Made by a program: the position numbers and the translations under genes
DNA from: Nitrospinaceae bacterium
GTDB lineage: Bacteria; Nitrospinota; Nitrospinia; Nitrospinales; Nitrospinaceae
Assembly: GCA_965237905.1 (NCBI GenBank)
Contig: OZ250172.1
Coordinates: 1,568,001 to 1,632,000 of the forward strand
DNA: 64,000 nucleotides
Direction: 5' to 3'
Notes under the pieces: generated by a model
The model's input: only the letters and a program-made list of their open reading frames with translations
What the model was told of the DNA's origin: nothing
The model's database searches: none
Part shown: positions 107 to 13,404 of the stretch, one piece after another
Layout: every line of letters begins with the position of its first letter
Numbering within the stretch: the stretch's first letter is position 1

Positions 107-411
107 GGCGGGATGACGTTAAATTATTGTTAATAAATAGCTTAAGATATAGAAAAGCACTGTGTCAAGGCGATTCCCGGCTTTACAAGGTCTGCCACAT
201 CCTGTATAAGTCGGGATCAGCGCGAAGCGGTTTGATTGCAACAGCTTGCGCCTCCCCACACGGGGAGGGGAAACTGGCTAAAAGGTAACTGCAAGAGAAA
301 CCTCTTGAGCGCAAGCGGAGTACCTCTGCAGGCAATTTGAAAATTATCTCCGGCGATTCGCCGGGCGTCGCGCTGGCTGGCCTCAACCCTCTTCATCAAC
401 AGAGAATTCAT

Positions 412-1551
412 GTGACTCGTTTGATCCTGATTGGTTTCATCGCCTCGGTGGTGCTCGGCGCCTTTGCGGGATGCGGACCCAGCGCCAGGGACCCGCAACC
501 GTTCGGCATCCCCTCCGCGTACAAGGTCGGCAAAAAACCCGCCACGCTGGTCGCCCACGACATGAACAACGATGAGTTTCCGGACCTCCTGATCCCAAAT
601 ACGGACGACCACACATTAATGTTTTTTGAGGGCAACGGCGACGGTTCGTTCAAGGAACCGTTCGTGATGAACACCGGTCGAGAGCCGGTAGCTCTGGCGG
701 TGGCGGATTTCAACAGTGACCGCATCCCCGATGCCGCCGTGTGCAATTACGGCGACGGTAATTTCTCCGTCATCCTCGGACAAGTAGATGGCGTGTTCAA
801 AATGCTCGACCCGGTGAAGACCGGCAAGCTTCCGATCGCCATCACCACCGGCGATTTCAATAACGACCGCAAGGCGGATCTGGCAGTGACCTTGCGATTC
901 GACAAGCTGATTATTTTTCTCGGCAACGGCGACGGCACCTTCAAACACGCGGAAGCCTATATCGCACCCGGCACACCGTCGCGACTGGTTGCAGGCGATT
1001 ACAACGGCGACAACAACCAGGACCTCGCCATCGCCTTCAACGCGATGAAGATGAATTTCATCCGCATCTACGACGGCAATGGCGACGGCACCTTCCAGCC
1101 GCCGAGGAAAGTCTTCGGTGGCAAGCAGGCAAGCTTCATCACCCAGAGCGACATGAACGGTGACGGCCATCTGGACCTGATCATCTCCAGCGCCCTTGCG
1201 GACAGTTTGACTATATTTCTAGGCGACGGCAAAGGTGATTTTAAGAGACAGGAAGATTTCGCCGCGGAAAAGGGACCGGGATACATCGTGCCGGGTGAGT
1301 TTACGGGCGACAAGATACCGGACTTGATCGTCGGTAACGTGCGCGACGGCGACATCTCGTTACTGCAGGGGCGGGGCGACGGGTCGTTCATCTTTCCGCA
1401 TTTCAATTATGCAGTAGGGCGCCAACCGCGCGCCATCGCCGGCGCCGACTTCAACAAGGACGGATTGAAAGATCTCGCAGTTTTACTCTACGATTCCGCC
1501 ACACTCCAAATCTTCATGCGCAAAATCGACAACGGCCGCATCGAGTCCTGA
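412..1551 (+). CDS. FG-GAP/VCBS repeat (beta-propeller) lipoprotein
   Basis: Seven repeats of D-F/M/Y-N-x-D-x-x-x-D-L...GNGDGTF; lipobox FAGC after GTG at 412 (ORF track starts at 337). Confidence 0.88.
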   Translation: MTRLILIGFIASVVLGAFAGCGPSARDPQPFGIPSAYKVGKKPATLVAHDMNNDEFPDLLIPNTDDHTLMFFEGNGDGSFKEPFVMNTGREPVALAVADFNSDRIPDAAVCNYGDGNFSVILGQVDGVFKMLDPVKTGKLPIAITTGDFNNDRKADLAVTLRFDKLIIFLGNGDGTFKHAEAYIAPGTPSRLVAGDYNGDNNQDLAIAFNAMKMNFIRIYDGNGDGTFQPPRKVFGGKQASFITQSDMNGDGHLDLIISSALADSLTIFLGDGKGDFKRQEDFAAEKGPGYIVPGEFTGDKIPDLIVGNVRDGDISLLQGRGDGSFIFPHFNYAVGRQPRAIAGADFNKDGLKDLAVLLYDSATLQIFMRKIDNGRIES

Positions 1552-1654
1552 CCTCCCCGCACCACAAAACAAAAAACATCTGACAGGACAACAGGATAAA
1601 ATCTGAATAACCCGGAACAGGGAAAAGGGGAACAAAGGAAGAATTGAAAAATCC

Positions 1655-1743
1655 AAACACAGATTCTTCGTCGCCTGCGGCTTCTCAGAATGACACACCC
1701 TTTTCAATTTGTCATCCTGAGCGTTAGCGAAGAATCTGTGTTT
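1655..1743. repeat. REP-like inverted-repeat element (GATTCTTCG..CAGAATGACA / TGTCATCCTGAGC..CGAAGAATC family)
   Basis: 16-bp perfect terminal inverted repeat aaacacagattcttcg/cgaagaatctgtgttt; related copy at 20403-20477. Confidence 0.8.
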
Positions 1744-1901
1744 TCCCTTTATTCCCCCTCTAATTTATATTCACCCTTTTTAATCGGCTTGCGGAATATG
1801 TGAACCTTTGTTAAGTTTGGGCAACCGTTCTTAACAAAGGGAAAGGCCTATTTTATGAGAAAGCTACCCCTCTTATCAGAGTGAAATAATAGAGGTCGAT
1901 T

Positions 1902-2369
1902 ATGTCAAGCCCCGTATGGGTTGGTCTTTTTAAAATTAGAGATTTACTCGAAAATATCCACAGTGCAAATCAGCAATGGCCCCCAAAAGCAAACGGTGTG
2001 TATATAATTTCTAAGCGGCTTTGGAGAACAAAGCCAAATACTAATAGTGAAATTTTGTATGTTGGAGGCAACACAGGAAAGAGCGAACGGTTCGTTACGA
2101 GAATAGGAGACCTTATGGCAGACCTATTTGGTTTTTATGGAGGAAATACAGGGCATCATTCTGGCGGACAATCAATTAATAAATACTGCCATGAAAATAA
2201 GATACACCCACTAAATTTATTTTTAGGCTGGAAAAAATATCTCATAAGTCCAGAATCAAAATCAAGCGCTCCTAGTAATTGCTCTCGTTGCCAAGAAGTT
2301 CTATTACATGCAGACCTAAGTCCAAAGCTAAATAAAAATAAACCCTCTAAATGCAAATGGCATAGTTAG
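1902..2369 (+). CDS. GIY-YIG-like nuclease-fold protein
   Basis: GVYII...ILYVG, downstream R..R, and C-terminal E-x6-L-S-P-K-L-N; AT-rich; RBS-like gagg upstream. Confidence 0.65.
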   Translation: MSSPVWVGLFKIRDLLENIHSANQQWPPKANGVYIISKRLWRTKPNTNSEILYVGGNTGKSERFVTRIGDLMADLFGFYGGNTGHHSGGQSINKYCHENKIHPLNLFLGWKKYLISPESKSSAPSNCSRCQEVLLHADLSPKLNKNKPSKCKWHS

Positions 2370-2374
2370 CCAAA

Positions 2375-3040
2375 TTGATGGTATTAAAAATAGTTCAAAT
2401 TCTAAAATCTTTTTTAATTAAATTTTTGAACCTAAAAATGGATAAGACTAAGAAAGATATATTTATTTCACCAGCCCCAGCAGTAGCAAAGACAACTGCA
2501 TTATCACCAACTGTATGGGTTTCAGCGAATTTCTCACATAAATGGTTCGAAGATGCCTTACATGAGGCAACAACAGAAAACACTGAAAATTCAATGCGGC
2601 GCGAAATAATCTTTTCTGTTTGTTTTTTAGAAAGCTACATTTTTGAATGGGTTAGAAATATAGACATTGGTATTATAAATAACTACTTCCCAGCTCAATC
2701 AAGATATCAGGGCGATACTCGCTATCGCAGAACTCTTAAAAATAAGTGGAAAGGAATTCCAAAAGAATTATTCGGTGAGGGCAAACTAACCTGCGAGCCA
2801 AGCTTGAATCTTTCAGAACTAGGAATATTAATTAAATACCGAGATGGGCTTGTTCATGCCGCAGCCAGCCGTCCATCAACAGACGTCCAAGCTCCTAATG
2901 AAAAACCTGTACCACCAATCGATGAATTAAAAAAGCTAAGTTCAGGATGGGCTCTTTCAATAGCAGTAGAATTAGTTAAAAAGTTGCATAATGATTTAGG
3001 AACAGACCCCCCAGATTATTTTGAAAACTGGAAAAAATGA
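2375..3040 (+). CDS. HEPN-like protein (start may be ATG 2438)
   Basis: Helical protein with FLESYI and Rx4H motif RDGLVH; AT-rich. Confidence 0.6.
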   Translation: MMVLKIVQILKSFLIKFLNLKMDKTKKDIFISPAPAVAKTTALSPTVWVSANFSHKWFEDALHEATTENTENSMRREIIFSVCFLESYIFEWVRNIDIGIINNYFPAQSRYQGDTRYRRTLKNKWKGIPKELFGEGKLTCEPSLNLSELGILIKYRDGLVHAAASRPSTDVQAPNEKPVPPIDELKKLSSGWALSIAVELVKKLHNDLGTDPPDYFENWKK

Positions 3041-4224
3041 AAATATCCATACAGTCTTACAGAATCTATGGTTCTAAAAAACACTACCGGCAGGAATCAC
3101 CGAGAACACCTTCCGCAAAACCACTTGTAATCTCCAATTACCCTCAAGCAAACGAGAAATCAGAAATAATCTTGGGAGAGTTTCCAAAAGATTATGAGAT
3201 AGCCTTCCAGGCCAGGAAAGCATTTGTAAGAAGTCTTGCTGATTCTTTCATTATCCAAGCTAACCGAGAGGGAGAAGATAATGTTTTTGACGATTATATT
3301 CAAAAAACAATAGAAACATCAGAACTCAAAGTTTCGGAGGAAGATTGGAATTGTTATATAACTTTTATAATTGATAAAGAAATTGAAATTGAGGATGAAT
3401 ATATTAAAAACCGGAAATATCTTTGGTTGAACGCTAGAATAGCTACCCAATTAAAAGAAGAATTTCATCAATACTGTCAATTGTACCTTGATAGGCTGAC
3501 CTCCCTCGGAATTATAGTTTTCGGAGAAGATATTATTTCAAATATTGTCGTAGAGGATGAAATTTTCTGCGCCCCAGATAAGATGCCGTTTAGCCAATTT
3601 GAAATTAAGGGTGGTGAAGCGAGTATTTCTCTAGAATTAGACCCTATTGAAGAAAAGTTGGATCAAAAAACTATCGAAAACTTATTAAATAATTTTTGCA
3701 AACTATCAAGTCGCGTCCATAAATTTTTCGATTCTGCAAGGCATTGGTATCTTGCCGCAGAAAAAGAAACCGATCCTTGGAAAAGGTTTATGTGGGGTTT
3801 CTTGGTAATGGAGATACTGGCAAGTAAAATATCTAACCAACTATATGATCATGTTATGGGGAGCTTAACTATTGAATACGATGCAATTGATAACGATGAT
3901 GACAGGAAAATTGAACCTTGGATTTCTCTAAAAGAATTATATCCTCCTAAGGATCGTTTAAATTTGACCCAAAAATTCACAATAATGGCTATCGGATTGA
4001 AAAGTAAAACAATATTAAAAGATATTGAAGCTTTTAAAAAGATAAAAAAATCCAGAGACCGATTATCTCATGGAGACCTCAAAAATGAATCTGAGTTACC
4101 ATTACATGAGTTTTTGCCTTTATTAAGAAGATATTTTGTAGAAGCAATAAAATTTAATTTAGAAAAAGGTAAAATTTCTCCTTTAGAGCCTCCTGATAAT
4201 ATGGAAATTAGGGTGAGTCTTTAA
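3037..4224 (+). CDS. protein with C-terminal ApeA-like/HEPN domain
   Basis: RF.W.F...E.L helix then Rx4H motif RDRLSHG; ATGA overlap with previous gene; AT-rich. Confidence 0.62.
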   Translation: MKISIQSYRIYGSKKHYRQESPRTPSAKPLVISNYPQANEKSEIILGEFPKDYEIAFQARKAFVRSLADSFIIQANREGEDNVFDDYIQKTIETSELKVSEEDWNCYITFIIDKEIEIEDEYIKNRKYLWLNARIATQLKEEFHQYCQLYLDRLTSLGIIVFGEDIISNIVVEDEIFCAPDKMPFSQFEIKGGEASISLELDPIEEKLDQKTIENLLNNFCKLSSRVHKFFDSARHWYLAAEKETDPWKRFMWGFLVMEILASKISNQLYDHVMGSLTIEYDAIDNDDDRKIEPWISLKELYPPKDRLNLTQKFTIMAIGLKSKTILKDIEAFKKIKKSRDRLSHGDLKNESELPLHEFLPLLRRYFVEAIKFNLEKGKISPLEPPDNMEIRVSL

Positions 4225-4303
4225 GCGAGGTGAAAAATCCCCCGGCCCCCTTCAAGAAGAGGAAGGTTCTCTCTGTGTCCTCTACGGTGAGTTAAGTCTT
4301 TTT

Positions 4304-6382
4304 TTATCCCCCGGTGAGTTTGGGGGCGGGGTAAGAGGGCAGGCGGTTGTAGAGGATCATTTTGGTTTCGGTGTCGAGGCGGCCGTGGTCCTTGAGGTTG
4401 TAGTAACGCTGGAACTTAGCCACAGCATCGGCGGTGCGCCGACCGTACCGGGGATCGGGCTGTTCGTTGTAGTAACCGAGCAGGTTCAACTGCTGTTGCA
4501 GCCATTTAGCAGGCTCACCTTTGTAGCCGGTTTTCATATCGCCGGGCAATTCTTCAAAATTTTTCCAGGGCACCCAGGCCTTGTGTGTCCACAGCGATTC
4601 AAATAGAGACAACGGAATTTCAAACGTCTCGTTGGAACGAAACACCCCCACATTGCCCTTGAGCGCCACCAACGCCAGGTAACGCGCGCCTTTGCCGTCC
4701 GGCAGGGTGAGCTCCACCAGAGCGGGATAGTTGAGCGTCGTTAACCGGTTCAGGTTGCTATTCGATTCATAAACGGAAAGCCCGTAATCGGTTTTTAGAA
4801 TTTTCTGCGCCTGCGGCGTCAGGGTGACCGTTTCTTTTTTGAAAGCGCGCCACCGTTTCAACACCCAGCGCGCGGCTTCGATTTTACTTTCACCGGTTGT
4901 CAGCGTGGACAGCTCCTCGACCAACTCTTTTTCTTGAGAAAATTTGACCGGAATTTGAGAATCCGCGGACTCATTGACCGGGCTGTCGCCCACCGAAGAC
5001 AGGGTGCGCGTTTGGGGCGACGCCTGGGGCACCAGTTGTCCCGACTGAGACAAATTCAGGGGTGTCTGCTCGATCATGTCGGTAATCTTGGTATCCTGCG
5101 GAACCGGATCAGATGATGAAAACTGGGTTTGAAAATAAACCGTGATCGCCGCCAGTCCACTGATCACCAAAAAAGCGGCGGCCAGCCTTCGAAGCGATCT
5201 GTTCCTCAAGGGTTTCGGTTGGATGTCCTCCAGAGTCTTCTCTGCCAGTCCGATAATAATGCGGTCGATCTTTTTCACTCCCCGAAGATGCGCCTCCGCC
5301 AGCGCCTGGTCGGCAAATCGGTTGATCAACCGGGGAAGGCCGCCGGAGGCCCGGAATACGGCATCGGCCGCAGGACGGCTGAAAGCCACCTTGCCCTTGC
5401 CGCCCGCCACATTCAGGCGATGCTGAATATAACCGTGCGTTTCTTCAAGGTTCAACGGATGCAGTTCCCACTGGGCACCGATGCGTTGCTGAAGTGATGC
5501 CATGGAGGACCGGTTCAGAGTTTTGTCCAACTCCGGCTGGCCGATCAAAACGATTTGGAGCAGTTTATCTTTTTCGGTTTCAAGGTTGGACAGGATGCGC
5601 AACTCTTCGAGCATCCCGGGAGCCAGGTCCTGCGCCTCGTCCACCACAACGGCGACGTACCGTCCCTCTGCTTTTTTCCTGATGAGGAACTTCCTTAAAT
5701 GAAACAACAACTCTTTTTTGTTTTTGCTGTGCGACGGCAGATTGAACTCGGCGTTGATGGATTGTATCAGCTCCACCGCGCTGTCGCAGGGATGAATCAG
5801 AGTGGCGAAATCGATGCCCGAATTCAGTTCCCTTAAGAAACTGCAACAGAGGATGGTTTTTCCAGTCCCCACGGCACCTACGATTTTCACGACTCCCTTG
5901 TTCTCCTGAAGAGCCAGCACCAACTGGGCCAGCACTTCCTTGTGCCGGGGAATCAGGTAAAAGTATTCCGGGTCGGGGGTGAGCTCAAACGGCTTTGCGC
6001 TCAATCCAAAAAATTCCAGATAAGACTGTGCCTGCTTGCGTTTGGCGATCATCACTTCCACGTCGCCTACTGCACGGGGAGGAGCCGGAACCTCGTCCGG
6101 TTCACTTGAAGTGTCCGGTTGGATATCTTTAAGATAGGGTGTGGGATCTATTCGCGCGTTATATTCCTCGCGCTTGGCATCATCCGAAAGCAGATCAAAC
6201 GCCTCCTGAACCTGTTCGATCTGCTCGATCAGCGAACCTTCCAAGGGACCCGGTTTGGGACGCTCCTGGGGATGATCGAAATATCGGATCCAGCCCAGAT
6301 ACGATTCCTTGATCTCACGCGGCGAGGCCTGGGGAGAAATTCCCAGCGCCTGGTAGTAATCGGTATATTTGACAGGGGACAC
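4304..6382 (-). CDS. ExeA/GspA-like AAA ATPase with N-terminal J-like domain and C-terminal peptidoglycan-binding domain
   Basis: DYYQALGI J-like start; YLEFFGL..PF..TPDP; Walker A GAVGTGKT; Walker B VVVDEAQ; LIGQPEL; TM helix; AVAKFQ...L...G PG-binding motif. Confidence 0.85.
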   Translation of the reverse strand: MSPVKYTDYYQALGISPQASPREIKESYLGWIRYFDHPQERPKPGPLEGSLIEQIEQVQEAFDLLSDDAKREEYNARIDPTPYLKDIQPDTSSEPDEVPAPPRAVGDVEVMIAKRKQAQSYLEFFGLSAKPFELTPDPEYFYLIPRHKEVLAQLVLALQENKGVVKIVGAVGTGKTILCCSFLRELNSGIDFATLIHPCDSAVELIQSINAEFNLPSHSKNKKELLFHLRKFLIRKKAEGRYVAVVVDEAQDLAPGMLEELRILSNLETEKDKLLQIVLIGQPELDKTLNRSSMASLQQRIGAQWELHPLNLEETHGYIQHRLNVAGGKGKVAFSRPAADAVFRASGGLPRLINRFADQALAEAHLRGVKKIDRIIIGLAEKTLEDIQPKPLRNRSLRRLAAAFLVISGLAAITVYFQTQFSSSDPVPQDTKITDMIEQTPLNLSQSGQLVPQASPQTRTLSSVGDSPVNESADSQIPVKFSQEKELVEELSTLTTGESKIEAARWVLKRWRAFKKETVTLTPQAQKILKTDYGLSVYESNSNLNRLTTLNYPALVELTLPDGKGARYLALVALKGNVGVFRSNETFEIPLSLFESLWTHKAWVPWKNFEELPGDMKTGYKGEPAKWLQQQLNLLGYYNEQPDPRYGRRTADAVAKFQRYYNLKDHGRLDTETKMILYNRLPSYPAPKLTGG

Positions 6383-6614
6383 AGCGCACTCTCCAGAAGT
6401 TCAGTTGCCGATTCGAAATCAACAGCCTTTTTTTGCCGCCGTATCAATATACAAATTCTGGAGAGAACTGTAAACAAAAAATAACGGACAAGTCCTTAAA
6501 AAACAATAATATGAGTGAAAATCCAGCGGTCTGGGCCGAATTTGCCCCAATCGGAGTGATGGGCTGAGAGCGGTTGACCGGAAAGGCTGGATAGGGGTAT
6601 GGTGTGGCCCAACG

Positions 6615-6711
6615 GCTCCCTTGACAGGGAGGGGACCGGGCCAAGCCCGGTGTGAATATATCCGGAGTAATCTCTGTTTAAACTGGGTCCAGCATCACGT
6701 TGACCGGTAGC
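6615..6711. repeat. ~100-bp dispersed structured repeat, copy 1 (diverged)
   Basis: gctcccttgacagggagggg ... tgggtccagcatcacgttgaccggtagc matches copy at 6884-6984. Confidence 0.75.
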
Positions 6712-6735
6712 TCATGGTGACAGGACTCTGCGATT

Positions 6736-6921
6736 ATGACCTCAAAGCCCAAACCCAAACCGAAATGTCCCGCCTGTGGAAAACCGGCGGTCAAGAAGGA
6801 CAATGCCTTTTTTCCGTTCTGCTCCGAGCAGTGCCGGTTGATTGATCTGGGACATTGGCTGGCCAGCGGCTATTCCGTACCCAGCTCCCTTGACAGGGAG
6901 GGGAAAGATGCTGACCGTTAG
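6736..6921 (+). CDS. yacG: DNA gyrase inhibitor YacG
   Basis: CPACGK...PFCSEQCRLIDLGHW...Y.VP zinc-finger signature. Confidence 0.92.
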   Translation: MTSKPKPKPKCPACGKPAVKKDNAFFPFCSEQCRLIDLGHWLASGYSVPSSLDREGKDADR

Positions 6922-6984
6922 CGGCTATTGACATCTACTGGGCGCAATTTAAAATTTGGGTCCAGCGTCACGCTGGCCGGTAGC
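6884..6984. repeat. ~100-bp dispersed structured repeat, copy 2
   Basis: gctcccttgacagggagggg...gctgaccgttagcggc...cgcaatt...gtccagcgtcacgctggc; overlaps yacG 3' end. Confidence 0.8.
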
Positions 6985-7194
6985 GATTCTCCCTTGTCAC
7001 CGGACCCCGAATCCCCAGAAAACAATTAAATGAAGAATCCCCCCGGCCCCCTTTACAAGGGGGAGCAAAATCAAAAATCCTGTTCATCCTGCTGATCCCG
7101 TTATTCGTTCCTCCAGGATGTTGATGGTTATCACCTGTTTGGGAGGACCTGTCTGCGTTTGGTTTTCTCTGTGCCCTCTGTGGTAATCAATCAG

Positions 7195-7871: not shown

Positions 7872-8522
7872 TTACTTTACAGGGCAGTTCTGATTGTAAC
7901 GGGTAAAAACAAAATTTGGTCCTTGACCGGGATGGGCGTTCCGTATCTTTAAGGCTTCGGCTTTCGCCAACTTGGCTTCCTCATTTCTGCCAGAAAGATC
8001 GAGGGCTTCCCCATACTCTTCAAAGAGAAGAGCTACCCCTATCGGATCACTTTTTACTGCGCCCAATTTTTTGATTGTTTCCAAACCGCTTGTGAAATAT
8101 TGTACAGATTCTTTTTTTCGGCCTGTATCGTAAAATAAATGTGCCAACTCGAAATAATTGGCGCTTAAATTTCCGGGAGCCCTGTCTCCAGGAGACATTT
8201 TAAGATAAAGATCAAGCGCCTCTTTTAAAAATTTTTCAGCCTCCGTATGTTCACAAAGATAACCCGTCAACCGACCATATTCGTACTTTATCAAAGCAGT
8301 TTCATAGTCTGAAAGATGTCCCATCTCTGCATTGGCCAAGGCTCTGCTATAATTCTTTCTGGCTAATTCTAAATCCCCCATGTTTTCGGCCTGGATTCCT
8401 GCACGGTAATAATTTTTGTAGGTCCTTCGATTAATAGGATTTGCACAAGCAGTAATCCAACACAACACTAAAATAAGGGCCACCAAAGCAAATCTTTTTT
8501 GACCATAAAGAAAATGATCCAT
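7872..8522 (-). CDS. TPR-like lipoprotein (AT-rich insert)
   Basis: Lipobox ITAC; helical TPR-like repeats. Confidence 0.75.
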   Translation of the reverse strand: MDHFLYGQKRFALVALILVLCWITACANPINRRTYKNYYRAGIQAENMGDLELARKNYSRALANAEMGHLSDYETALIKYEYGRLTGYLCEHTEAEKFLKEALDLYLKMSPGDRAPGNLSANYFELAHLFYDTGRKKESVQYFTSGLETIKKLGAVKSDPIGVALLFEEYGEALDLSGRNEEAKLAKAEALKIRNAHPGQGPNFVFTRYNQNCPVK

Positions 8523-10546: not shown

Positions 10547-10981
10547 TTAACTCTTCAATCCAAATTCTTCCGGATATTTTTTTCTGTAATAAAACCAATA
10601 AGCGATAGCAATAAGAAAGGCAAATACATAAGCCGCTTCTGAGGTTATTCGTAGCGCAGTGGGTTCGTAATAAATAAGATCTTTCAAAAAAGTTGTGGTA
10701 AAAAAAATCATAAATGGAATAAAAATCCAAAAACGGGACCAAATGTGAACCGATTTTTTATAACAAACAAGAAGCCCAATTCCCAAAATAACCGTATCAA
10801 TTGACCAGGTAATATTCAAAATGGCCCAACCTAAAATCACCTGTTTTGAAATGGCCATGGGAAGATGCAGATACAAACCATAGAGCCCAGCACAAATAAA
10901 GGCTATCCCCGCTATTTTAACAAACAAAAATGCGTATCTTTCTGTCTTGCTGTTTCCTGGATTTTTTTCGTATAAAGCCAT
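10547..10981 (-). CDS. AT-rich membrane protein (about 4 TM)
   Basis: Four hydrophobic segments; ATG at 10981. Confidence 0.55.
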   Translation of the reverse strand: MALYEKNPGNSKTERYAFLFVKIAGIAFICAGLYGLYLHLPMAISKQVILGWAILNITWSIDTVILGIGLLVCYKKSVHIWSRFWIFIPFMIFFTTTFLKDLIYYEPTALRITSEAAYVFAFLIAIAYWFYYRKKYPEEFGLKS

Positions 10982-11090
10982 ACACCTAATATAAAGGCTA
11001 AACAAGCCAGCGGATATAAAAATTTAACATTTTTTTCAGAGGCTCTCTGGACAGTTGACATTATGACTATTTCCCGGTTAAATACCCGCC

Positions 11091-12261: not shown

Positions 12262-13404
12262 ATGAAAATTCCCAACCGTGCGGGAAGATACATACGGCAA
12301 ACTGCAGGTTTTAGCGCCTTTATCCCGGAGCCCCTGCCTTCCAACCCTCCGTTGGAGATGACCGATGACCTGATGTTGCTTCTGTCGCAGGCCGATCAGG
12401 CTCTGGCGCGTTTGGATGGGGTGGCCAGCATTCTGCCTAACCCCGATTTGTTCGTACTTATGTATGTAAGAAAGGAAGCGGTCCTCAGTTCGCAAATTGA
12501 AGGGACCCAGAGTTCCCTGGACGATCTCCTGGAATATGAAACCAAAGTCACCCGGAAAAGTATTCCTTTTGATGTGGGCGAGGTATCCAATTACGTGCAG
12601 GCGATGAATTACGGCCTTGAACGATTAAAGGATTTGCCTTTATCGCTACGATTGATTCGTGAGATTCACGAAAAACTGATGGACAAGGTGCGCGGCGGAA
12701 ACAAAACGCCCGGTGAATTCCGGCGCACGCAAAACTGGATCGGTCCTTCTGGCTGTTCCCTAGAGGAAGCGATCTTTGTGCCGCCGCCTGTTCAGGAAAT
12801 GGAGCAGTCCTTGAGCCAGTTTGAAAAATTCCTTCACCAGCCCGACAAAATCCCGGTGTTGATACAGTGTGGACTGGCCCATTGCCAGTTTGAGACGATT
12901 CATCCCTTTTTGGATGGAAACGGAAGAATCGGAAGGTTATTAATTACCTTCCTTCTGTGCCAGAAAGAGGTTTTGCGGTATCCTCTATTATACTTGAGTC
13001 ATTATTTCAAAAAACACAAGCAGGAATATTACGACCGCTTGATGATTGTCCGAAATAATGGCGACTGGGAACAGTGGATCGCATTTTTTCTGAATGGAAT
13101 CCTAGAAGTCAGCCGCCAAGCTCATGAAACCGCTCAAGCCGTTATAAACCTCGAAAAAGACCAAAGAGAAAATCTGGCTCATAAATTTGGCCCCAGATCC
13201 TCTACCATGAAATTATGGAGCCAGTTGTTTGAGCGCCCGCGCCTAAACAGTAACCTCGTCCAGCAGTTACTGGGATGCTCCCAAGCGGCTGCCATCAACG
13301 CTCTGAACAAGCTCACCGATTTAAAAATCCTGGAAGAAATCACCGGAAGTCAAAGATACCGTGTGTATCGTTTCTCTCCCTATTTGGATCTGTTCAAAAA
13401 TTGA
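12262..13404 (+). CDS. Fic-family protein (N-terminal inhibitory motif, C-terminal wHTH-like region)
   Basis: Canonical HPFLDGNGRIGR; SSQIEG motif; EITGSQRYRVY C-terminus. Confidence 0.95.
   Translation: MKIPNRAGRYIRQTAGFSAFIPEPLPSNPPLEMTDDLMLLLSQADQALARLDGVASILPNPDLFVLMYVRKEAVLSSQIEGTQSSLDDLLEYETKVTRKSIPFDVGEVSNYVQAMNYGLERLKDLPLSLRLIREIHEKLMDKVRGGNKTPGEFRRTQNWIGPSGCSLEEAIFVPPPVQEMEQSLSQFEKFLHQPDKIPVLIQCGLAHCQFETIHPFLDGNGRIGRLLITFLLCQKEVLRYPLLYLSHYFKKHKQEYYDRLMIVRNNGDWEQWIAFFLNGILEVSRQAHETAQAVINLEKDQRENLAHKFGPRSSTMKLWSQLFERPRLNSNLVQQLLGCSQAAAINALNKLTDLKILEEITGSQRYRVYRFSPYLDLFKN

Follow-up and report, generated by a model that had tools for sequence, protein, structure and literature searches.

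Three uncatalogued families of predicted nucleases in a variable intergenic slot of a Nitrospinaceae genome

Single-gene precedents for nuclease-based phage defence exist both for the GIY-YIG fold, in CMoRE (PMC12923530), and for the HEPN domain, in ApeA (bioRxiv 10.64898/2026.01.26.701840; 10.64898/2026.03.20.713152). Sequential displacement of genes in the type VI secretion system arrays of Vibrio cholerae has been explained by homology-facilitated illegitimate recombination (PMC5361080). The locus under study comprises three AT-rich open reading frames, ORF1, ORF2 and ORF3, near the left end of a 64,000-nt stretch of DNA (the window) that spans positions 1568001-1632000 of the 3.09-Mb single-contig genome of a Nitrospinaceae bacterium. 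A sequence-only reading of the window had proposed that the three genes form one undescribed anti-phage system, with three independently captured single-gene cassettes as the alternative. The proposal of one system is not supported by our comparison, and the alternative fits better. ORF1-3 are three new families of known superfamilies lying in a variable slot, and we favour, with fair though incomplete assurance, the explanation that they are independent single-gene toxin or defence cassettes, probably stacked by recombination behind a common promoter-like sequence. This explanation draws on the variability of the slot, on the positions of its breakpoints, and on the fact that the three families were not found together elsewhere.

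The site between the FG-GAP-repeat gene and the DnaJ-ExeA gene is a variable slot. Eight of the ten congeners were examined and seven show both flanking genes, which are convergent with one another in all seven; the FG-GAP gene has matches in 92 of 120 genomes of the phylum. The slot measures 65, 77, 252, 329 (without a gene), 709, 2547 and 2998 nt in these congeners, with four alleles empty and three filled differently (comparison genomes are designated by G-numbers, the source genome being G000, and loci by L-numbers). In G028 the 709-nt slot contains one 184-aa gene. The 2998-nt slot of G032 (L146, 2852-5481) contains a Dam-type methylase gene, a ParB-domain gene and a gene of 275 aa, all on the opposite strand, and the 2547-nt slot of G033 contains a 313-aa gene and an ORF3 orthologue, with ORF1 and ORF2 absent. 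The methylase alone among the slot occupants matches PADLOC, the others being the ParB protein, Rx4H proteins and unassigned genes; the 313-aa gene of G033 is HEPN-like by motif only and has no Pfam or PADLOC match. Metagenome contigs in two runs join position 1551 to 4302 (85% likeness, one with 27 letters on the short side), and a contig of run X2, which is perhaps the source of this DNA, covers 200-6500 with zero differences. A second variable slot lies 5-7 kb upstream, before gidA, where the source genome has a DUF4062 gene, G032 and G034 have other genes, and five of the seven congeners have none. No tyrosine recombinase was found within about 550 kb of the slot between the FG-GAP and DnaJ-ExeA genes, no Y1 transposase, and neither junction shows a palindrome with a 6-bp core; the two DUF559 genes of the genome were not linked to the slot.

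Alignment by blastn with G033 gave homology at 5-1819 and 3037-6609 and nothing between. The left breakpoint is thus at 1819, just past a -10-like box, and the right breakpoint is exactly at the ORF3 ATG. Identity to G033 is 67% in ORF3 and 91% and 81% in the flanks. The three genes are co-oriented, as had been claimed, and ORF2 and ORF3 overlap by ATGA at 3037-3040, with the stop codon of ORF2 coming from the ORF3 start. The C-terminus of ORF2 is two residues shorter than in its eight closest homologues. Because ORF2 ends two residues early and its stop is supplied by the start of ORF3, a joint is the most natural explanation of the overlap. The tight packing claimed for ORF1 and ORF2 (a 5-bp gap) holds for the longest ORF2 frame, which begins with TTG; homologues of ORF2 start at ATG 2438 or a few residues upstream of it, and the gap is therefore likely to be 68 bp. 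The block is more AT-rich than its surroundings, in agreement with the sequence-only reading: GC content is 0.30-0.39 against 0.50 for the genome, and GC content at third codon positions (GC3) is 0.27-0.28, compared with 0.65-0.74 for the genes on either side. The neighbours had been described as convergent host genes; this is true of the right-hand gene only, the FG-GAP gene being co-oriented with the block.

None of the 28 ORF1-family loci, of which 24 extend at least 600 nt downstream, and none of 80 ORF2-family loci, out of 138 (at least 600 nt upstream in 52 and downstream in 47), contains a member of another of the three families. Across 240 loci, two families occur together only in loci cut from the source genome. 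At the genome level, none of 27 genomes that have the ORF1 family gave a match to the ORF2 or ORF3 profile, and none of 5 that have the ORF3 family gave one to the ORF1 or ORF2 profile. Among the 120 genomes of the phylum the ORF1 family occurs in three, the ORF2 family in one and the ORF3 family in two, overlapping only in the source genome. A conserved partner gene for the ORF1 or ORF2 family was not found, except in loci that are near-identical or belong to the same prophage. No paralogue of ORF1, ORF2 or ORF3 was found elsewhere in the source genome, in which single genes make up 64 of the 76 low-GC blocks. In every set examined the three families come together in the source genome only, a result against a single system on the very point of co-occurrence that had been proposed as a check beforehand.

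The leader of the three genes contains a 38-nt element in which 14 variable nucleotides separate two conserved blocks, and whose layout (TTG-box, 17 nt, TG-n-TA-box) suggests that it is a promoter. Five copies of this 38-mer were found in 4 of the 21 genomes of the family, all in this genus, against zero in the control. They occupy four sites in the genus, each behind dispersed repeats and 29-93 nt before a different AT-rich gene. The genes behind the element are ORF1, a DUF4062 gene, the 313-aa gene of G033, a gene for a HAD protein that matches PADLOC PDC-S34 (E 1.6e-118), and a 348-aa gene. The DUF4062 copy is the second one in the source genome and lies in the slot upstream of gidA, about 5 kb before the window (in the region 1563041-1564140). 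We found no further convincing copy in 120 phylum genomes, and none more in the source genome. Looser matches are at chance level (three mismatches give matches in 25 of 120 genomes, and numerous control matches as well), and the sole one-mismatch match, in G105, is at the end of a coding region. The inverted repeat across the left breakpoint (Table 1) may be an operator or an insertion scar; its right arm was not seen in the other four 38-mer copies.

Table 1. Positions, in window coordinates, of the three genes, the flanking genes and the intergenic elements
Feature	Position	Strand	Description
Host FG-GAP-repeat gene, left slot anchor	337-1551 (start perhaps 412)	+	Pfam FG-GAP_3, E 3e-41
Dispersed intergenic repeats	1557-1750	.	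Many blastn copies in genome; strong hairpin about 1655-1743; DNA fold z -7.2
Promoter-like element	1782-1819	+	AATCGRCTTGCGGAAT-N14-TAARTTTG; -35-like box 1789-1794, 17-nt spacer, -10-like box 1812-1817
Inverted repeat across left breakpoint	1805-1840	.	11-bp arms; z -3.4
ORF1	1902-2369	+	155 aa
ORF2	2438-3040	+	200 aa from ATG 2438; longest frame 2375-3040, 221 aa from TTG
ORF3	3037-4224	+	395 aa
Second dispersed repeat family, right end of insert	4229-4265	.	blastn copies elsewhere in genome
Host DnaJ-AAA(ExeA-like)-peptidoglycan-binding gene, right slot anchor	4304-6382	-	Pfam

Library scans of ORF1-3 gave no Pfam match at E 0.1 and no NCBIfam match, and none of the three attains a Pfam, NCBIfam or PADLOC cut-off. 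The PADLOC check suggested by the sequence-only reading was run, and its sole match is a weak one of ORF1 to PDC-S02 (E 0.015).

The ORF1 family numbers 70 proteins including ORF1, one of them labelled as a Nitrospina gracilis protein, and 67 were aligned. The predicted model of ORF1 (predicted local distance difference test, pLDDT, 92.9) has a GIY-YIG alpha/beta fold, with T4 endonuclease II (EndoII; Z 7.8, root-mean-square deviation (rmsd) 3.5, 113 residues aligned), I-TevI (7.3) and UvrC (7.2) as its top matches, all Z values being below 8. These are followed by PD-T4-3 (5.0), Eco29kI (4.9) and Hpy188I, with unrelated rows from 2.6 down. Foldseek gave no match at E <0.001 with the ORF1 or the ORF2 model; profiles of ORF1 and ORF3 gave unrelated weak rows only against the sequences of solved structures, and none of the 67 aligned ORF1-family members matches Pfam GIY-YIG. 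The GIY-YIG order of Tyr, Tyr-x-Gly, Arg, Glu and Asn is kept in ORF1, as Y34 (67/67), Y53 and G55 (67/67 each), R63 (64/67) or R67 (66/67), E132 (67/67) and N144 (66/67). From what is known of the GIY-YIG family, these are presumably the catalytic residues. A predicted zinc site is formed by C127 (64/67), C130 (64/67), C151 (63/67) and H154 (59/67). The motifs and potential zinc ligands pointed out in the sequence-only reading are therefore present and conserved beyond chance, and its GIY-YIG call gains support from the fold matches of the model. We consider it supported that ORF1 is a stand-alone GIY-YIG-fold domain of an uncatalogued family, predicted from fold and motifs to be a DNA endonuclease.

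Compared with the GIY-YIG nucleases T4 EndoII, I-TevI, UvrC-N and CMoRE/PD-T4-3, ORF1 is alike in fold and in the conserved residues, and it differs in being a 155-aa domain alone and in having a conserved GHHSGGQ in addition to its Cys/His residues. The identity with CMoRE/PD-T4-3 (PMC12923530) was rejected: ORF1 is without the GIYxY-YIG motif (position 36 is V, I or L in 67/67), it stops at the nuclease domain without the C-terminal modification-sensing domain, and it has no PD-T4-3 match in the PADLOC scan. The ORF1 homologues of G024 and G073 have the coding part alone in common with the window, and not the leader. The ORF1 family was not found in plasmid records or annotated phages, and it occurs at three loci on viral contigs. 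Genes of the family on the opposite strand inside prophage tail modules were observed at L008, L013, L015, L024 and L026 and at L187 and L188. In the Myxococcales the gene sits between the tail tube gene and the next tail gene, a typical position for an accessory gene. The Atlas look-alikes of ORF1 include the T4 nucleoid disruption protein Ndd (score 0.92, rank 29).

HEPN RNases are metal-independent and act as dimers with a composite active site. The model of ORF2 is all-helical (pLDDT 90.9), and its top fold matches are HEPN domains, those of sacsin (Z 8.5, rmsd 3.5, 126 residues aligned) and HepT SO_3166 (Z 8.2), at sequence identities of 16% or less. These Z values are modest for a helical protein, and the call therefore rests on the rank order together with the motif. 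The HEPN RNase motif is Rx4-6H with a polar N, D or H after the arginine (PMC3710099), and ORF2 fits it: of the 33 proteins of the family, including ORF2, 32 were aligned, and R135 and H140 are invariant (32/32), with D, N or H at 136 in all. A bare Rx4H is weak alone, being present in 17% of ORF2 shuffles and 29% of ORF3 shuffles; the Rx4H motifs noted earlier in both proteins are conserved beyond chance. That ORF2 is a stand-alone HEPN domain, as the sequence-only reading had it, is supported by the model, and ORF2 and ORF3 are predicted from folds and motifs to be RNases. Compared with the HEPN RNases HepT (of HEPN-MNT pairs), AbiV, HepS and RiboL-PSP-HEPN (PMC3710099), ORF2 is alike in its helical fold and invariant R[DNH]xxxH; the RiboL-PSP model gives weak matches in 5 of 32 ORF2-family members only. 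ORF2 differs from the HEPN-MNT pairs in that no partner was found. A HEPN-MNT toxin-antitoxin pair was rejected, and the earlier remark that the trio lacks such an antitoxin is borne out, since no minimal nucleotidyltransferase (MNT) was found in the window, among the selected neighbours (150 of 152 scanned with Pfam), or in a crude motif scan of 101 near neighbours. The ORF2 family was found neither in plasmid records nor on viral contigs.

The ORF3 family has 235 representatives, of which 86 full-length sequences were aligned. R340 is conserved in 85/86, H345 in 84/86, D or N at 341 in 77/86, and an upstream glutamate, E259, in 85/86; the strict Ex3[KR] spacing was not seen. Five of the 86 match HEPN_Apea and two match MAE_28990 (best E 1.5e-5), and the Atlas finds MauJ in 16% of members of one cluster, at 0.93. 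The ORF3 profile matches the ORF2 family weakly (E 0.0036, probability 9%). Sequence comparison thus supports the reading of ORF3 as an unassigned N-terminal part fused to a C-terminal HEPN domain that would be Apea/MAE_28990/MauJ-like, so that the HEPN call made for ORF3 stands as far as R340/H345 and the matches of family members carry it. ORF3 resembles ApeA (bioRxiv 10.64898/2026.01.26.701840; 10.64898/2026.03.20.713152) in that one protein combines an N-terminal part with a predicted HEPN domain at the C-terminus, its Rx4H intact, and members of its family match HEPN_Apea, weakly. It differs in length, with 395 aa against at least 583 for Ec2ApeA, ApeA being a three-domain protein of about 600 aa. 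The identification of ORF3 as ApeA was rejected on that length and on the PADLOC ApeA model, to which 0 of 86 family members match at E 0.01. We take the PADLOC library to contain such a model.

The ORF3 family has, besides the orthologue in the slot of G033, representatives beyond the phylum in 1, 1 and 2 of 401 sampled genomes and in one plasmid record. Outside the source genome, an Rx4H protein is adjacent to the ORF3-family gene in 3 of 6 loci; the control counts in the two remaining families, made after removal of near-duplicate loci, are 0 of 20 and 8 of 55. Such neighbours occur in the source genome, in G033, in G1091 and at the plasmid locus L190, and the G1091 partner is weakly like that of G033 (14.9 bits in a small set). 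In G1216, DUF5677 and AIPR genes lie upstream of the ORF3-family gene. Within this small sample, a frequent Rx4H or DUF5677 neighbour can be seen at L244 (2378-4628), L145 (12666-14831), L190 (5968-8991) and L245 (2716-5117).

An anti-phage role of the three proteins is plausible from the neighbourhoods of their homologues. In G024 (L005, 700-10900) the ORF1 homologue lies in an integrase-linked island, between a CBASS cluster (cyclase, E2-E1, JAB, patatin) and an Abi_C gene, near the integrase and together with a gene for a helix-turn-helix protein. Other ORF1-family neighbours are SMODS/SAVED, AbiEi, Fic/RES, an integrase with HEPN, and prophage tail genes. The ORF2 family has methylase-Mrr, TIR, Mrr_N and integrases as neighbours, and also many housekeeping or unassigned genes, and the ORF3 family has AIPR, Mrr, or methylase and helicase.

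If the three genes are independent cassettes, the following order of events may be proposed. ORF3 would have been the first arrival in the slot, and ORF2 and ORF1 would have been inserted later, before ORF3. The leader with the promoter-like element and the repeats probably served as the homologous anchor and the far end as the illegitimate joint of a homology-facilitated illegitimate recombination; the far joint would have clipped the last two codons of ORF2 and made the ATGA overlap. Each protein may act alone on infection, ORF1 by cutting phage DNA and the HEPN proteins ORF2 and ORF3 by cutting tRNA or mRNA upon a phage cue, as in abortive infection. Any co-transcription would simply result from the position of the genes in the slot.

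A single co-evolved system of one DNase and two RNases would account for the co-orientation, the ATGA overlap, the uniform GC3 and the want of an antitoxin-like partner, yet the families come together in no set, G033 has ORF3 without the other two, the overlap falls at a breakpoint and at a shortened end of ORF2, and the likely gap between ORF1 and ORF2 is 68 bp; we regard such a system as highly improbable. The genes may instead be separately acquired modules that cooperate, with an ORF3-type HEPN protein working best beside a second, exchangeable HEPN protein, or with short DNA fragments made by the EndoII-like ORF1 switching on ORF3, or both. The Rx4H neighbour in 3 of 6 ORF3-family loci leaves room for HEPN-HEPN cooperation, and the likeness of the G1091 and G033 partners and the DUF5677 and AIPR genes of G1216 agree with it. 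Cross-talk between ORF1 and ORF3 is possible because Ec2ApeA is activated by deoxydinucleotides and T4 EndoII, the top fold match of ORF1, is named as a possible source of the ligand (bioRxiv 10.64898/2026.01.26.701840). Against cooperation, there are six loci only, the partners are not of one family, only ORF2 was fold-tested as HEPN, ORF3 is far shorter than Ec2ApeA with no PADLOC ApeA match in its family, and ORF1 was not found in five of five other ORF3-family genomes. This makes it quite unlikely.

Selfish or neutral cargo is another unlikely explanation, in which ORF1 would be a free-standing homing-type endonuclease and the HEPN proteins orphan or inactive toxins in a recombination-prone spacer. 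It draws on I-TevI as the second fold match of ORF1, on the 5 of 26 ORF1-family genome loci where the gene is flanked by prophage tail genes and oriented against them, on the G073 homologue alone between two insertion sequence copies, on the many housekeeping neighbours, and on the fact that ORF2 has no clear ribosome-binding site. However, predicted catalytic residues are near-invariant in families 20-70% identical, and the other occupants of the slot or of the 38-mer sites appear to be of defence type. Homing GIY-YIG enzymes carry an added DNA-binding region, whereas ORF1 is the nuclease domain alone.

Several points also weigh against independent cassettes stacked by recombination. Homology-facilitated illegitimate recombination is rare (PMC5361080), and only two alleles underlie the proposed insertion route. 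ORF1 and ORF2 together fill a single replaced segment, and no strain was found whose slot has one without the other; because they share that segment, the two may have arrived together. The sigma-70 scan did not list the promoter-like element. Incomplete genomes and short contigs are frequent in the comparison set; the covered ORF2-family loci are the 80 of 138 given above, with the close relatives of ORF2 (61-69%) outside the context set. At L038 (716-2296) an ORF2-family gene stands directly behind a LEM-3/PD-T4-3-like GIY-YIG gene, of a family other than that of ORF1, and the frequency of Rx4H neighbours in the ORF3 family counts here as well. The list of defence-type neighbours is descriptive and does not imply enrichment.

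A bolder extension of stacking, which we put forward as speculative and on balance doubtful, is that this genus has an integrase-free device for gene capture. A portable promoter of about 45 bp would have spread to several intergenic slots as a landing pad, at which promoterless defence genes would be inserted at the transcription start, expressed at once and stacked newest-first, in an integron-like manner without IntI or attC; the window would then hold a three-deep stack of uncatalogued nucleases. Capture driven by the repeats is unsupported, since 5 of 76 low-GC ORFs have an intergenic repeat nearby, as do 95 of 1999 high-GC ORFs (strict patterns and crude ORF calls). A true integron was rejected on the best TIGR02249 score, 90.6 bits against a cut-off of 265, and on the overlap of ORF2 and ORF3. 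Nothing relevant to this gene trio or to the 38-mer was found in the literature searched, which includes few subscription papers.

Elsewhere in the window, solitary insertions among host genes were noted: an AT-rich TPR gene (7872-8522), an AT-rich membrane protein gene (10547-11005) and a Fic gene (12262-13404). Two related non-coding copies lie at 6690-6990, one of them behind a near-consensus TTGACA...TAAAAT promoter. A 27-41-nt part of these copies matches several places in the G033 region, and they are possibly a dispersed element or a small RNA.

The comparison disposes of a spurious candidate system. What remains is three uncatalogued nuclease families, each a candidate for single-gene defence, in a lineage of nitrite oxidisers whose immunity is barely covered in the literature searched. 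An ATGA overlap can be what a joint leaves behind, and it does not prove that two genes have co-evolved. The flanks of the slot and the 38-mer are simple markers for finding more solo defence candidates in nitrite oxidisers, and the portable promoter-like element is the part most worth following; if it is indeed a landing pad, slow-growing marine bacteria would be sampling defence genes without a dedicated recombinase.

Among described systems, the type VI secretion arrays of V. cholerae (PMC5361080) resemble the slot, as reconstructed above, in having a conserved upstream anchor, with the new module at the front and the older gene shifted downstream. The slot differs in that its anchor is short, non-coding and present at several loci, and its cargo consists of unrelated nuclease genes. 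The resemblance to integrons is that genes would be added just behind a common promoter and older ones pushed downstream; the differences are that no IntI over cut-off is present in the genome and that the ORF2-ORF3 junction has no room for attC. The slot is probably a miniature core defence hotspot. Like cDHS1/2 of Pseudomonas aeruginosa (bioRxiv 10.1101/2022.11.11.516204) and the P2/P4 hotspots (PMC9122126), it has conserved flanks and a content that varies among relatives. Unlike them, it is tiny (0.07-3 kb), often empty, limited to one genus and without an integrase nearby, and it shares with several other such slots a recurring promoter-like element.

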